Source of the DNA: a virus
Lineage: Duplodnaviria > Heunggongvirae > Uroviricota > Caudoviricetes
Virus record (IMG/VR): IMGVR_UViG_2711768034_000005
DNA: 5,564 nt
Direction: 5' to 3' (one strand)
Notes under the pieces: model-generated
What the model was told of the DNA's origin: nothing
Databases searched by the model: none
Seen by the model: only the letters and a program-made list of their open reading frames with translations
Shown here: piece by piece, positions 298 through 5,564 of the stretch
How positions within the stretch are numbered: the stretch's first letter is position 1
Layout: each line of letters opens with the position of its first letter
Program-made: the position numbers and the translations under genes

Positions 298-446
298 TAC
301 CTCTTTCGCTCTCGTCAGAATTCCATCAAGATTAATTGCTAAAAAGCGTGCTAAAGAAAGAAGATCGTTATCGGCGAACGGGCCGATCACTCATGCAGGA
401 AGCATAGATCCTTTGAGCGGAGTTTCTGATATCTGAGGAGTGCGAA

Positions 447-1208
447 ATGCAATTGAGCAGCAGTGAACCTTGCGTGGTGATCCTGACCGAAAAAGAGGTA
501 GAGGTAAGCGTCAATAACCATGCTACGTTTACCCTTCCGAAAAACTACCTGGCCGCCTTCGCGTGCAACAATAACGTCATTGAACTCTCAACGTTAAATC
601 ACGTATTAATCACCCACATCAACCGTAACATCATCAACGATTATCTGTTGTTTTTAAATAAGAACTTAACCTGTGTAAAGCCCTGGTCGCGGCTGGCAAC
701 CCCGGTTATCGCTTGTCATAGCCGTACACCGGAAGTGTTCCGGCTAGCCGCCAACCACAGCAAGCAGCAACCCAGCAAACCCTGCGAAGCGGAGTTGACG
801 CGCGCATTACTTTTTACCGTATTGTCTAACTTTCTTGAGCAATCGCGGTTTATTGCCCTACTGATGTATATCTTACGCAGCAGCGTCCGCGACAGCGTCT
901 GCCGCATTATTCAAAGCGATATTCAGCATTACTGGAATCTGCGAATTGTCGCCAGTTCGCTATGTTTAAGCCCCAGCCTGCTCAAAAAGAAATTAAAAAA
1001 CGAAAATACCAGCTATAGCCAGATTGTCACAGAGTGTCGTATGCGTTACGCCGTACAGATGTTATTGATGGATAACAAAAATATCACTCAGGTGGCGCAA
1101 TTATGTGGCTATAGCAGCACGTCGTACTTTATCTCTGTTTTTAAGGCGTTTTACGGCCTGACACCGTTGAATTATCTCGCCAAACAGCGACAAAAAGTGA
1201 TGTGGTGA
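447..1208 (+). CDS. envY: AraC/XylS-family transcriptional regulator EnvY (porin thermoregulatory protein), 253 aa
   Basis: ORF 447..1208 with RBS GAGGAG at 435-440, 6 nt before the ATG. The C-terminal AraC-type HTH region (LSPSLLKKKLKNENTSYSQIVTECRMRYAVQMLLMDNKNITQVAQLCGYSSTSYFISVFKAFYGLTP) and the full-length sequence match E. coli EnvY as I recall it. Low GC. Confidence 0.88.
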   Translation: MQLSSSEPCVVILTEKEVEVSVNNHATFTLPKNYLAAFACNNNVIELSTLNHVLITHINRNIINDYLLFLNKNLTCVKPWSRLATPVIACHSRTPEVFRLAANHSKQQPSKPCEAELTRALLFTVLSNFLEQSRFIALLMYILRSSVRDSVCRIIQSDIQHYWNLRIVASSLCLSPSLLKKKLKNENTSYSQIVTECRMRYAVQMLLMDNKNITQVAQLCGYSSTSYFISVFKAFYGLTPLNYLAKQRQKVMW

Positions 1209-1253
1209 AGGGCAAAGCGGAAACGGATAAGACGGGCATAAATGAAGAAGAAA

Positions 1254-1298
1254 TGGCGCGCCCTGCAGGATTCGAACCTGCGGCCCACGACTTAGAAG
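1254..1298 (-). pseudogene. 3' fragment (about 45 nt) of tRNA-Arg(UCU) argU: prophage attachment-site core (attR), pauD-like tRNA pseudogene
   Basis: Reverse complement of 1254-1298 is CTTCTAAGTCGTGGGCCGCAGGTTCGAATCCTGCAGGGCGCGCCA, i.e. anticodon loop (UCU) through T-arm, acceptor 3' strand and CCA of argU. The sequence 5' of this (1299 onward) does not supply a D-arm or a complementary acceptor 5' strand, so it is a partial copy, not a functional tRNA. Confidence 0.85.
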
Positions 1299-1499
1299 TT
1301 CCTAGAACGACATTTTAAGTCAACAACTTACCGCGCCATCTCTGCGCTCACACGTCCCACTACCTCAAAACATGTAAAGCCTTGCAAGCCATTGTGAGGC
1401 CTTATGTGTCTCAGTTTTGTCCCTCTTTTTTGTACTAAAAAACATAGCAATTGAGGATAAACCTCATGCTATTTTCGCTTATATGCCTCTAAAGGCATA

Positions 1500-1720
1500 G
1501 CGCTTAAATAGATAAAAACACCACAAAAGCATAAAAAACCACACAGTAAAACCGCAATATAAAACAATAACAGATAATTAAACCAAAAACAGATAGCGCA
1601 TTGTGATAATCATTCAATACTAAACAAAATATAAACAGTGGAGCAATATGTAATTGACTCATTAAGTTAGATATAAAAAATACATATTCAATCATTAAAA
1701 CGATTGAATGGAGAACTTTT
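1500..1720 (+). promoter_or_regulatory. AT-rich ompT upstream region (promoter/leader) with RBS GGAG at 1710-1713
   Basis: Very AT-rich A-tract-rich sequence directly upstream of ompT; Shine-Dalgarno GGAG 7 nt before the ATG at 1721. The exact -35/-10 elements cannot be fixed from sequence alone. Confidence 0.4.
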
Positions 1721-2674
1721 ATGCGGGCGAAACTTCTGGGAATAGTCCTGACAACCCCTATTGCGATCAGCTCTTTTGCTTCTACCGAGACTATATCGTT
1801 TACTCCTGACAACATAAATGCGGACATTAGTTTTGGAACTCTGAGCGGAAAAACAAAAGAGCGTGTTTATCTAGCCGAAGAAGGAGGCCGAAAAGTCAGT
1901 CAACTCGACTGGAAATTCAATAACGCTGCAATTATTAAAGGTGCAATTAATTGGGATTTGATGCCCCAGATATCTATCGGGGCTGCTGGCTGGACAACTC
2001 TCGGCAGCCGAGGTGGCAATATGGTCGATCAGGACTGGATGGATTCCAGTAACCCCGGAACCTGGACGGATGAAAGTAGACACCCTGATACACAACTCAA
2101 TTATGCCAACGAATTCGATCTGAATATCAAAGGCTGGCTCCTCAACGAACCCAATTACCGCCTGGGACTCATGGCCGGATATCAGGAAAGCCGTTATAGC
2201 TTTACAGCCAGAGGTGGTTCCTATATCTACAGTTCTGAGGAGGGATTCAGAGATGATATCGGCTCCTTCCCGAATGGAGAAAGAGCAATCGGCTACAAAC
2301 AACGTTTTAAAATGCCCTACATTGGCTTGACTGGAAGTTATCGTTATGAAGATTTTGAACTCGGTGGCACATTTAAATACAGCGGCTGGGTGGAATCATC
2401 TGATAACGATGAACACTATGACCCGGGAAAAAGAATCACTTATCGCAGTAAGGTCAAAGACCAAAATTACTATTCTGTTGCAGTCAATGCAGGTTATTAC
2501 GTCACACCTAACACAAAAGTTTATGTTGAAGGCGCATGGAATCGGGTTACGAATAAAAAAGGTAATACTTCACTTTATGATCACAATAATAACACTTCAG
2601 ACTACAGCAAAAATGGAGCAGGTATAGAAAACTATAACTTCATCACTACTGCTGGTCTTAAGTACACATTTTAA
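1721..2674 (+). CDS. ompT: Outer-membrane protease OmpT (omptin, protease VII), 317 aa precursor
   Basis: ORF 1721..2674. N-terminal signal peptide MRAKLLGIVLTTPIAISSFA followed by STET.... Omptin catalytic residues are present at the expected places (precursor D103 and D105 in VDQDW; D230 and H232 in SDNDEHYD, equal to mature D83/D85/D210/H212). The full-length sequence matches E. coli OmpT from memory. Confidence 0.95.
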   Translation: MRAKLLGIVLTTPIAISSFASTETISFTPDNINADISFGTLSGKTKERVYLAEEGGRKVSQLDWKFNNAAIIKGAINWDLMPQISIGAAGWTTLGSRGGNMVDQDWMDSSNPGTWTDESRHPDTQLNYANEFDLNIKGWLLNEPNYRLGLMAGYQESRYSFTARGGSYIYSSEEGFRDDIGSFPNGERAIGYKQRFKMPYIGLTGSYRYEDFELGGTFKYSGWVESSDNDEHYDPGKRITYRSKVKDQNYYSVAVNAGYYVTPNTKVYVEGAWNRVTNKKGNTSLYDHNNNTSDYSKNGAGIENYNFITTAGLKYTF

Positions 2675-2690
2675 GAACGCCAACTAAAAT

Positions 2691-2720
2691 TTCCCCGAGG
2701 TGAAAATCGCCCCGGGGAAT
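2691..2720. terminator. Putative bidirectional hairpin terminator between convergent ompT and appY
   Basis: Imperfect inverted repeat TTCCCCGAGG ... CCCCGGGGAA (one mismatch, 9-nt loop) 17 nt after the ompT stop, flanked by AAAATTT on one side. The U-tract is weak on the plus strand and somewhat better on the minus strand (AUUUUA), so function is uncertain. Confidence 0.4.
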
Positions 2721-2922
2721 AACTAGCCATTTCAATGTAACAATTAACCCTTAAAATAAACCCAGAAGGTTATTAACTAAATCACATAGAAAACCATCAA
2801 TTATAGCATGTATAAAATAGGCGACAGCAACCCAATTACAAATTAATGGTTCCAGAATATCACATCAAAAAAACGCTGTATAATATTATAATTAACATGT
2901 AGACAACTTGTAATAAACATTA

Positions 2923-3672
2923 TCAGTCAATTGTTTTGTTTATTCCATCTGTGACGCCGATTATTTTCTCAAAATAATGAGATGGCGTGACACCATAATA
3001 ATCTTTAAATGCACATATGAAATATGAAGTACTGTTATAGCCACATTTCTGGGCTACGACATTGATAGAATAAGAGTTTGAAGTTATGAGTTTTTTTGCA
3101 TACCTCATCCTAGTATCTCTCAATATTTCAGTAAATGACGTTCCTTCATCCCTTAATCTTTTTTTTATTAAACTTTCACTCGTATAAATCAATTCCGCAA
3201 TATCTTTTAAATGCCATTGCCGCTCAATATTAAAACTGATTATTCCAGTAATTTTACAGGTAAATGTATTTATATTTGTTAGTATAAATGAATTTACACT
3301 TTCGCGTTTTTTGAACATGGCAAGTAAGGATATACATAGTCTTTCTTTTAACCAAAGGGAGTGTGAGTCTGCTATTTTAATCCCTTCAAACAGAGAAAAA
3401 ACAAGCGATAATGGAGGTTCCTCTTCAGCAATATAGCCATTCTTATCAAGAGTAAATTTGCCAGGCAGCTCATTATTCACGTCGATAAAAAAGGATAAAC
3501 ATGTTTTCTTATCTATATCAACAATTCTTAGTTTAGAGGGGCATACTGGTAACTCCCTTCTAATTTTGTCGCTTACAATAAACAATGAATTTTTTTTGAA
3601 CGAGATAACTCCCCTGTTTATAATTAAATCAAATGATTGACAGATGAAAACTACGGAGCAAACATAATCCAT
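2923..3672 (-). CDS. appY: AraC/XylS-family transcriptional regulator AppY, 249 aa
   Basis: ORF 2923..3672 (minus). The translation [56 protein letters not shown]... with a C-terminal AraC HTH ([19 protein letters not shown]) matches E. coli AppY from memory. Plausible RBS AGGTG 4 nt upstream of the ATG. Low GC. Confidence 0.92.
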
Positions 3673-4217
3673 CTTGCACCTATCATAAAATTAAAACAAG
3701 TTGATAGCAGTCAAATAACAACCAATTAAATACACAATCATAATCAGGATGATGTGCATTTATATTTTTATACACAAAATTATAGTTTGCAAATTTTAAT
3801 AAATTTCATTTAAGATTAAATTATTATATGTATATTGTTTTTTATTCTAACGTATTTCAAAGTTACATTTTTCAACGCTTACTATACTTTTTATTAACAT
3901 AAACTCACTACAACGCACCTGAAACCTCTTGCTATATATATGTCAACCGTTTGAATTTAAAATAAAAAGAGTATCATTTTTACTTGCATTTCTTATCAAG
4001 TCACATTCAACAACAGTAAAAAAACATTATTAGAACCATTCAATTAACAAAAAACCAACATCCAGCTTGCTTAATTTTTCTTTATTAAACGACATTGAAA
4101 ATCAATTGATAAAATACATCTAAACAACCTTTTGGGGCGCAAAAGCATAACATCAAACAAACAAATAACACACCGAAAAAACTCACAATTAATAACCTAT
4201 GATATACATACTGTTTA
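3673..4217 (-). promoter_or_regulatory. Long AT-rich upstream/leader region of appY (candidate promoter and nucleoid-protein-bound silencing region)
   Basis: About 545 bp of strongly AT-rich, A/T-tract-rich DNA with no ORF of 60 aa or more, lying between the tfa remnant and the appY start. Assignment as the appY control region is by position only. Confidence 0.4.
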
Positions 4218-4429
4218 TTATGGTTGAATAAGCCACTCGATATCTGGTGCTACGGAAGTGTCCACACGGTTTAGCAGCACCCGATACTTTTTTCAGGCTT
4301 CCAGCAACGATCTTTCTTCCTCCGTTGCGATTTCCAGATCTACAGCATCCTGCAGTGGCGCAATATACTCACTGAATTCCTGGATGTAGAACTGTGTGGT
4401 GACGGTCTTCCAGCCATTCGGCTCCTGCT
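4218..4429 (-). pseudogene. Tail fibre assembly protein (Tfa-like) C-terminal remnant with an in-frame stop; tfaX-like pseudogene
   Basis: Minus-strand frame ending at stop 4218-4220 translates ...[67 protein letters not shown]. The [19 protein letters not shown] motif is the conserved C-terminus of lambdoid Tfa proteins as I recall it. An in-frame TGA sits at 4293-4295. The upstream boundary is the junction with the FII fragment at about 4429/4430. Confidence 0.6.
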
Positions 4430-4495
4430 GTACCCGCGTATCGTTTCATCGGCGCAGGCAATGGCAGCATCGAACAGGTTATCGAAATCAGCCAC
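4430..4495 (-). pseudogene. Lambda FII-like head-tail joining gene, N-terminal 22 codons only (deletion-truncated)
   Basis: GTG at 4493-4495 (minus), 11 nt after the FI stop, with GGGAGG RBS; translation MADFDNLFDAAIACADETIRGY matches the start of lambda gpFII from memory, then homology ends abruptly at about 4430. Confidence 0.65.
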
Positions 4496-4506: not shown

Positions 4507-4905
4507 TTATTGCATTCTGGCCAGGCCGCGCTCTGTCATTTCGGCTGCCACACCGGCAGAGACACGAAACGCCGTTCCCGGCAGCACAAATGCCACAGGT
4601 TCATCCCGCGTGGCGTGAAGTGCATCAGTATGCAGCTTCACCAGTGCCACGACCGTGACCAGTTCAGACGTATCCAGAATCACGGTATCCGGCTGCGCTG
4701 ATCCCACCTCATTTTCATGTCCGGTCAGCACATTTTCCCGGCTGAGAGGGGTGTCCTGACCGGCAGTTTCATCCGTGTCATCAAGCTCCTCTTCCAGCTC
4801 TGCCACACGGAGCGCCAGTTCTTCTTTCGTCCCCGTCAGGCTGACATCACGGTTCAGTTGTTCACCCAGCGAGCGGAGACGGGCAATCAGTTCATCTTTC
4901 GTCAT
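4507..4905 (-). CDS. Lambda FI-like DNA-packaging protein (gpFI), 132 aa, apparently intact
   Basis: MTKDELIARLRSLGEQLNRDVSLTGTKEELALRVAELEEELDDTDETAGQDTPLSRENVLTGHENEVGSAQPDTVILDTSELVTVVALVKLHTDALHATRDEPVAFVLPGTAFRVSAGVAAEMTERGLARMQ. Start ATG at 4903-4905 preceded by RBS GGAGGAG (4909-4915). The supplied 145-aa ORF (4507..4944) begins at an upstream in-frame ATG that lies in the E-FI spacer; I prefer the internal Met with the RBS. Confidence 0.82.
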   Translation of the reverse strand: MTKDELIARLRSLGEQLNRDVSLTGTKEELALRVAELEEELDDTDETAGQDTPLSRENVLTGHENEVGSAQPDTVILDTSELVTVVALVKLHTDALHATRDEPVAFVLPGTAFRVSAGVAAEMTERGLARMQ

Positions 4906-4946
4906 GGACTCCTCCACAGAGAAACAATGGCCCCGAAGGGCCATGA

Positions 4947-5043
4947 TTACGCCAGTTGTACGGACACGAACTCATCAGGGTCAGCCAGCAGCATCAGCGG
5001 TGCTGACTGAATCATGGTGAACTCACGCGCCGGATCCGCCAGA
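4947..5043 (-). pseudogene. Lambda E-like major capsid gene, C-terminal 31 codons plus stop (deletion remnant)
   Basis: Minus-strand frame LADPAREFTMIQSAPLMLLADPDEFVSVQLA* ends at stop 4947-4949, 41 nt upstream of the FI start. Position and spacing fit the E-FI arrangement of lambda-like phages; identity of the short fragment is by synteny plus partial recall. Confidence 0.6.
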
Positions 5044-5200
5044 TTTCGGCATACCATTTTATGACGGCGGCAGAGTCATAAAGCACCTCATTACCCTTGC
5101 CACCGCCTCGCAGAACGGGCATTCCCTGTTCCTGCCAGTTCTGAATGGTACGGATACTCGCACCGAAAATGTCAGCCAGCTGCTTTTTGTTGACTTCCAT
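5012..5200 (-). pseudogene. Terminase small subunit Nu1 (nohD-like), N-terminal 52 codons fused out of frame to the E remnant; truncated pseudogene
   Basis: ORF 5012..5200 translates MEVNKKQLADIFGASIRTIQNWQEQGMPVLRGGGKGNEVLYDSAAVIKWYAE, matching the lambda Nu1 N-terminus (winged-HTH DNA-binding domain), then IWRIRRVSSP* which is E-derived sequence read out of frame. Homology to Nu1 stops at about 5044. Confidence 0.85.
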
Positions 5201-5420
5201 TGTTCATTCCACGGCCAAAAACAGAGAAAGGAAACGACAAAGGCCCAAAAGCTCGTTTTCAGCACCTGTCGTTTCCTTTCTTTTCAGGGGGTATTTTAAA
5301 TAAAAACATTAAGTTACGACGAAGAAGAACGGAAACACCTTAAACCGGAAAATTTTCATAAATAGCAAAAACCCGCGAGGTCGCCGCCCCGTAACCTGTC
5401 GGATCGCCGGAAAGGACCCG
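5201..5420 (-). other. Lambda-type cohesive end site (cos): cosB 5201-5377, cosN 12-nt cohesive-end sequence 5378-5389, cosQ region about 5390-5420
   Basis: Reverse complement of 5371-5400 reads GACAGGTTACGGGGCGGCGACCTCGCGGGT, containing the lambda cohesive-end sequence GGGCGGCGACCT. The sequence between cosN and the Nu1 start closely matches the lambda cosB region (Nu1-binding R sites and IHF site) and 5390-5564 matches the lambda right-end sequence, all from memory. Confidence 0.82.
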
Positions 5421-5564
5421 CAAAATGATAATAATTATCATCTGCATGTCACAACGTGCATCTACGCCATCAAACCACGTCAAATAATCAATTATGACGC
5501 AGGTATCATATTAATTGATCTGCATCAACTTAACGTAAAAACAACTTCAGACAATACAAATCAG

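Follow-up and report, generated by a model that had tools for sequence, protein, structure and literature searches.

The window analysed here, i.e. the whole stretch of 5,564 nucleotides, contains, from its first letter on, the end of an IS3 element (1-297), envY (447-1208, + strand), the attR of prophage DLP12 (1252-1298, - strand), ompT (1721-2674, +) and appY (2923-3672, -), followed by a remnant of a tail-fibre-assembly gene and, from position 4429 to the end of the window, by lambda-derived DNA. The attR is an exact 47-bp repeat of the 3' end of argU (tRNA-Arg), in agreement with the definition in PMC6379469, where such a 47-bp argU repeat is described at the far end of DLP12. The attR marks the prophage boundary, which makes ompT and appY part of the prophage and leaves envY outside of it. 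A tRNA gene at 1250-1330 was considered and rejected, as ARAGORN predicts none there and the 47-bp att repeat is found instead; Rfam gives a sub-threshold partial tRNA match at 1265-1348. The order of cos, nohD', tail remnants, appY, ompT, attR and envY is that of DLP12 in K-12 and in other strains, the envY-ompT-appY part of the window is 99.1-99.6% identical to K-12, and in close relatives argU and an integrase remnant are present at the other end of the prophage. The element at the far end of the window is the cos site of the cryptic prophage DLP12 (qsr'), here in a lineage that carries a 6.7-kb deletion. An earlier note on this DNA had put the site forward as a new candidate origin of packaging; it is an already known and ordinary site, the cos of DLP12 having been described before (PMC3945230), in a deletion variant of that prophage. 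At the opposite end of the window the IS3 end lies approximately 150 bp upstream of an intact envY, a junction which the window shares with 16 complete E. coli genomes; in the related strain O9:H10 the IS3 truncates envY.

The gene content of the window was determined by tblastn against lambda proteins. Residues 1-52 of Nu1 (100% identical), residues 312-341 of E, the whole of FI and residues 1-22 of FII were found, while A, W, B, C and D gave no match in the window, which confirms the absence of the terminase large subunit A claimed previously. The truncated nu1 ORF (terminase small subunit; 5012-5200, -) is composed of 52 lambda-identical codons (5045-5200) and 10 unrelated codons, and in relatives it is annotated as an incomplete DNA-packaging protein pseudogene. 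Its lambda-identical part is cut off by a deletion junction at 5041-5044, located by alignment and tblastn, where lambda bp 347 is joined to 7068. Lost with this 6.7-kb internal deletion are the whole of A, W, B, C, Nu3 and D and the greater part of both nu1 and E, and codon 52 of nu1 is now followed by the final 30 codons of the major capsid gene E (residues 312-341 and the stop; 4947-5040, -, by tblastn). The junction is present in 11 of 5,426 complete E. coli genomes, at 99.5-100% identity and with the pieces annotated as pseudogenes, and full-length nohD is kept in most DLP12 copies. Residues 1-52 of the Nu1 stub correspond to the DNA-binding domain of known structure (1J9I, 68 residues; 7LW0, 56 residues), and the recognition helix (17-24) and the wing (31-39) are retained. 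The earlier note was right in considering nu1 truncated, but not in placing the cut after the DNA-binding domain, because codon 52 lies inside the 68-residue construct 1J9I.

FI (4507-4905, -; 132 aa) is intact and 99.2% identical to lambda gpFI, it is annotated as DNA-packaging protein FI in relatives, and it has been kept whole although the neighbouring head genes are deleted or truncated. The FII fragment (residues 1-22; 4430-4495, -) ends at a second deletion junction at 4429-4432, where 4,904 bp are missing in relation to strain 300081 (the rest of FII, Z, U, tail-fibre genes and a SAM methyltransferase) and where the two sides share a 4-bp overlap. Strain 300081 is the nearest complete genome, 99.8-99.9% identical outside this 4,904-bp segment. 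None of the 5,426 complete E. coli genomes contains the junction of FII' with the tail-fibre-assembly remnant, and the GTDB representative genomes lack an exact 40-mer that spans 4429-4432. A full-length but sub-threshold Rfam match to IS009 (4252-4448, -; 107.3 bits vs. a gathering score of 117) sits in the tail-fibre-assembly remnant and spans this junction. Another pattern of deletions (Nu1', a portal fragment, E', FI' and J') was observed in the DLP12 remnant of MRE162 (L001), which indicates that DLP12 is decaying independently in separate lineages; the MRE162 copy also carries an A-to-G change at the lambda-equivalent bp 118, inside the R2 contact segment of cos.

For comparison with lambda, the minus strand of 5044-5564 was aligned to the circularised lambda reference (48328-48502 followed by 1-347). 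The two are identical in 502 of 522 columns (96% over 522 bp), with a single 1-bp indel. A GGGTCCT motif corresponding to cosQ (5413-5419, -) is an exact match to lambda 48473-48479, which we take to be the cosQ coordinates and which are consistent with the alignment. The interval from cosQ to cosN contains no indels, so that the lambda spacing is kept, and the 22-bp cosN nicking region (5374-5395, -) is identical to lambda. It includes the 12-nt cohesive-end sequence GGGCGGCGACCT, of which the window holds one exact copy (5378-5389, -); if as many as two mismatches are tolerated, chance alone would give 0.15 matches to this 12-mer in the window. The remaining subsites were mapped with published lambda coordinates (PMC9026076, PMC4856287, PMC4669245). 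In these, minimal functional cos is lambda 48446-182 and I2 is bp 18-50 (PMC4856287), while R3 is bp 50-65, with TerS contacts at 55-63 and genetically defined key positions 56, 58 and 59 (PMC9026076). The alignment counterpart of the minimal functional cos is a complete lambda-type cos at 5209-5446 (-); the adjoining 5447-5564 (-) is non-coding homology to the lambda right end (48328-48445), upstream of cos and outside cos proper.

I2, the spacer and bend between cosN and cosB (5340-5372, -), is identical to lambda at 32 of 33 positions, with C23T as the change and no indel. Both the spacing between cosN and cosB (PMC4856287, PMC9026076) and I2 itself are required in lambda, block substitutions in I2 being lethal (PMC4856287), and termination needs I2 together with cosQ and cosN (PMC4669245). 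The TerS-binding site R3 (5325-5340, -) matches at 15 of 16 positions, the exception being C53T; all nine contact bases (55-63) are unchanged, the key positions 56, 58 and 59 among them. The core of I1, the IHF site (5299-5311, -), is identical to lambda bp 79-91 (13/13) and has one mismatch to the IHF consensus; its exact borders were drawn from that consensus and are therefore putative, although the position between R3 and R2 is as in PMC4669245. R2 (5266-5281, +), inverted in relation to R3 and R1, is identical to lambda bp 109-124 at all 16 positions, and R1 (bp 151-166; 5225-5240, -), an accessory TerS-binding site (PMC4669245), matches at 15 of 16, the change being C151T in its first base. 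The site thus has the cosN, cosQ, I2 with its spacing, and cosB in the order R3-I1-R2-R1 with R2 inverted that characterize a cos of lambda specificity, and with them all the elements that published work requires for initiation and termination of the lambda type. Packaging specificity of the phage-21 type was ruled out, as the R sites are of the lambda/phi80 and not of the phage-21 type. In a promoter and terminator scan of 4900-5564 cosN (5376-5391, -) was flagged as terminator-like, which we regard as a pattern artefact of its GC-rich symmetry and the T-run of I2; the same scan also flags a hairpin between E' and FI (4927-4944, -). From this comparison the description of cosQ, cosN (5378-5389) and cosB as intact stands, cosN and cosQ being exact and the R3 contacts, I1 core and R2 unchanged. 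The comparison of the R sites with lambda, which the earlier note had set as a test of its own proposal, found none of the positions changed that genetics or NMR has shown to matter for Nu1 binding.

The whole alignment holds 20 differences from the lambda reference, including C23T in I2, C53T at the edge of R3, C151T at the edge of R1 and a 1-bp deletion between R2 and R1, and these raise the question whether the site is an inert fossil, made unusable by C53T, by C23T, by the changed R2-R1 spacing or by its chromosomal context, and so of no consequence. There are grounds for such a view: C53T changes a base that is conserved in all three lambda R sites (R3, R2 and R1), I2 is functionally critical (PMC4856287), and the prophage is decaying, with two deletions in the present copy and the change at R2 bp 118 in that of MRE162. 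There are also grounds against it. C53T is common to DLP12 of K-12 and phage 2H10, and the K-12 cos, which has most of the variants of the present one, also carries A73G, T102C and the 1-bp deletion; the cos region of K-12 DLP12 gives viable hybrids (PMC3945230). The 1-bp deletion between R2 and R1 is present in K-12 DLP12 and in three deposited phage genomes, which makes the lambda reference the outlier, and bp 16-24, which include the changed position of I2, vary among the functional phages lambda, phi80 and 21. Of the differences from lambda that lie in the minimal cos, all but those at bp 23 and 48448 are represented in at least one of the phages PhiR26_1, 2H10 and PhiR49_1*. The variants at bp 23 and 48448 were found in IMG/VR viral contigs by exact-pattern scans, and two of these contigs carry both.

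These two contigs contain the allele unchanged. The 250 bp at 5201-5450 are 100% identical in L016 (IMGVR_UViG_2778261645_000002), part of a 43-kb viral contig of which 9.9 kb were covered; positions 1054-9072 of it comprise the cos allele and, after it, Nu1, A, W, B, C, D, E, FI and FII, all at full length. They are also 100% identical in the metagenome viral contig L023, where full Nu1 and residues 1-635 of the 641 of A follow, up to the end of the covered stretch. The exact allele is therefore part of lambda-type packaging modules which appear to be complete and whose TerS DNA-binding domain is identical to that of lambda. L016 may be closely related to the phage that supplied the left arm of the present DLP12 variant. 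As an identical allele heads an apparently complete set of head genes, it is very probably cleavable by a terminase of lambda specificity, and such a terminase would probably recognise and nick the present cos. C53T or C23T might still cause a quantitative defect of cleavage. With the identical allele standing before terminase genes and with the key positions of R3 unchanged, we consider it unlikely that the site is inert.

A usable cos is not yet a route for the transfer of ompT. In the classical lambda 'doc' particles host DNA is reportedly packaged from the one cos of a prophage that has not excised, and the present cos is intact and correctly oriented. The earlier note had proposed that a helper phage supplying terminase would start packaging toward lower coordinates, through appY, ompT, envY and the adjacent chromosome. 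The direction agrees with what is known of lambda terminase, which stays on the translocated cosB-bearing end, and action of a helper terminase in trans on repressed chromosomal cos sites is likewise documented (PMC4669245). In the same work passive chromosomal prophages, arranged in tandem, were packaged by a helper at 1-4 virions per cell, given two cos sites, the second one downstream being needed. That completion depends on a second cos, as the earlier note had foreseen, is a requirement of cos terminases: without a second cosQ-cosN the protruding DNA blocks tail attachment (PMC6687093), and unterminated heads are not fit for tails (PMC6687093, PMC4856287). We searched the 63 kb downstream in strain 300081, which contain nfrAB, cus, pheP and then the ent/fep cluster, and no second cosN (22-mer, up to 5 mismatches) was present there; the only resemblances to the cohesive-end sequence were two 12-mers with 2 mismatches, which is chance level. 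Furthermore, cos phages are reported not to perform lateral transduction (PMC12829572), and the present site is of the cos type, while origins of lateral transduction belong to headful, pac-type terminases. Reads from purified lambda virions grown in K-12 map almost exclusively to the lambda integration site and approximately 25 kb on either side of it (PMC7667829), yet K-12 carries a near-identical DLP12 cos. The proposed interpretation is thus partly supported, in that initiation at this cos is plausible and productive transfer of ompT is not, and the cos-initiated route for mobilising ompT is not supported, given the lack of a second cosN-like site within 63 kb downstream in strain 300081 and of reported lateral transduction in cos phages. 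That the site is an effective helper-dependent origin, delivering appY, ompT, envY and adjacent chromosome at a biologically meaningful frequency in a cos-type lateral transduction, is in our opinion very unlikely.

A further possibility is that the cos, perhaps together with the 62-residue Nu1 stub, has been kept as a decoy that hinders lambda-type phages by abortive packaging, by poisoning of TerS dimers or by occupation of cosB, loosely in the manner of the PICI protein Rpp. The stub does retain the winged helix-turn-helix and wing and is identical to the region that folds and dimerises (PMC4669245), and PICIs are known to redirect a lambda-type TerS through a protein resembling its DNA-binding domain (PMC9026076). 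Against this, the truncated form is rare and lineage-specific, being found in the 11 genomes mentioned above, where it is annotated as a pseudogene, and most DLP12 copies have full-length nohD. The 1-4 chromosomal copies of cos would face hundreds of phage cos copies, which makes titration impossible. K-12 with DLP12 is fully permissive for lambda, which also speaks against a decoy. Because the truncation is rare and lineage-specific and the copy numbers oppose titration, we regard a defensive role as extremely unlikely.

The consequence for which there is experimental precedent is recombination with incoming phages. DLP12 of K-12 and lambda share 98% identity over 3,353 bp that span R, Rz, cos, nu1 and A (De Paepe et al., PMC3945230), and recombinants between lambda and DLP12 were approximately 100-fold more frequent than those with Rac or Qin. 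Ten of 19 junctions in that study adjoined cos and three of 19 lay beyond it, all recombinants tested were viable, and the authors proposed that terminase breaks at the cos sites of both lambda and DLP12 stimulate exchange (PMC3945230). In accordance with such exchange, the cos segment differs strongly when copies of DLP12 from separate lineages are compared. Its divergence amounts to 3.3-4.0%, compared with 0.4-0.9% in the flanking envY-ompT-appY DNA and 0-1.3% in the nu1 stub; in the comparison with K-12, where 8 of 246 positions of the cos segment differ, the difference between cos and flank is significant (Fisher p = 2e-4). Expressed as a ratio, the non-coding cos segment (5201-5450) is about six times more diverged than the ompT/appY/envY DNA (298-4228). 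For bp 53 and 145 all four combinations of alleles exist among lambda, the window, K-12 and PhiR26_1. Stronger-than-neutral conservation of the whole cos segment was rejected, since the opposite was seen and the segment is more diverged than its flanks. Within the segment, one of 21 variable positions falls in the functional cores, where 5.2 would be expected (binomial p = 0.02, from only seven sequences), and this sole exception is the R2 change in the MRE162 prophage. These patterns suggest that the segment has repeatedly been replaced from live phages by recombination, and relaxed constraint on non-coding DNA could, in this small sample, contribute to the divergence as well.

Taken jointly, these observations are most simply explained if the site is a relic that resembles live cos sites by its descent from, and repeated exchange with, active phages. 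We find it probable that it is a relic cos of DLP12 which a helper terminase can use, which leads packaging into a dead end and whose consequence lies in recombination. A terminase of lambda specificity, supplied in trans, would bind R3 and R2 with the help of IHF and nick cosN. It would then remain on the cosB side as Complex I and translocate toward FI, appY, ompT, attR, envY and about 47 kb of chromosome. With no cosQ-cosN downstream the head could not be closed, and the event would come to a dead end. The unprotected end on the cosQ side would at the same time be exposed to RecBCD or Red, and for that reason the practical consequence would be cos-stimulated recombination and exchange of markers with lambdoid phages, and not transfer of ompT. 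The function of the present cos is deduced here from its sequence and from its presence in apparently complete phages and prophages; the role in recombination was demonstrated in DLP12 of K-12, which has full-length nohD and more flanking homology, and is extended here from it to the present deletion variant.

Several known systems share a part of these properties. The cos of lambda has the same subsites in the same order, orientation and spacing, and differs in its setting, the present site being part of a defective prophage without a cognate terminase. The cos/nohD region of K-12 DLP12 is the same element with the same neighbours (attR, ompT, appY, tail remnants, nohD, cos and ylcI); K-12 has full-length nohD and a fragment of A, whereas the present locus has only the first 52 codons of nu1, joined to E'-FI-FII'. 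The lambda 'doc' particles come, as would any particles from the present locus, from one chromosomal cos, by unidirectional packaging into host DNA and without proper termination. The 'doc' prophage is said to supply its own terminase, and its particles to be defective unless the protruding DNA is trimmed, as Sternberg and Weisberg are reported to have found in 1975. The assay of Feiss resembles the present locus in that a repressed, unexcised cos is used in trans and packaging proceeds from cosB downstream, but there a second cos lies one genome length downstream and complete virions result, while the present locus has a single cos (PMC4669245). The E. coli PICIs with Rpp also have a chromosomal lambda-like cosN that relies on helper terminase (PMC9026076, PMC6739421); unlike the present locus, which keeps the cosB of lambda, they excise, replicate, are of packageable size and possess rpp and a cosB of their own. 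We therefore also considered whether the locus is a PICI or another cos satellite, and rejected this on gene content: what adjoins cos is limited to the nu1 stub, E', FI and FII', and the annotations of the close relatives O9:H10 and 300081 show an integrase pseudogene and neither rpp nor replication genes. Finally, lateral transduction by pac phages has in common with the packaging proposed for the present locus the initiation in situ and the unidirectional packaging of flanking chromosome, and is set apart by its requirement for headful (pac) termination (PMC12829572, PMC6687093).

A 250-bp cos-like stretch (at least 80% coverage) is present in 3,970 of 5,426 complete E. coli genomes (approximately 73%), a count that takes in the cos sites of other lambdoid prophages, and a transduction route from such sites, if it were true, would consequently be widespread. 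In the strongest form of that proposal, a helper of lambda specificity would set off packaging in situ at the DLP12 cos in the majority of infected cells, and a measurable class of particles, or of DNase-protected heads, would result, with a fixed headful of about 50 kb that begins at 5389, passes ompT and the cus operon and reaches the enterobactin cluster, as a widespread cos-lateral transduction with a fixed origin. We hold this to be very improbable. Were it correct, a considerable proportion of E. coli strains would possess a fixed starting point from which ompT, the cus operon and some of the enterobactin cluster could be moved, and the view that flanking chromosome is not transduced by cos phages would have to be revised. 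According to the reading that we prefer, of a relic cos that acts through recombination, a packaging signal can continue to look functional in a prophage that is itself dead, and in this way become a preferred place of breakage and recombination for incoming lambdoid phages, which would help to explain the mosaicism of these phages and the rescue of DLP12 genes into them.
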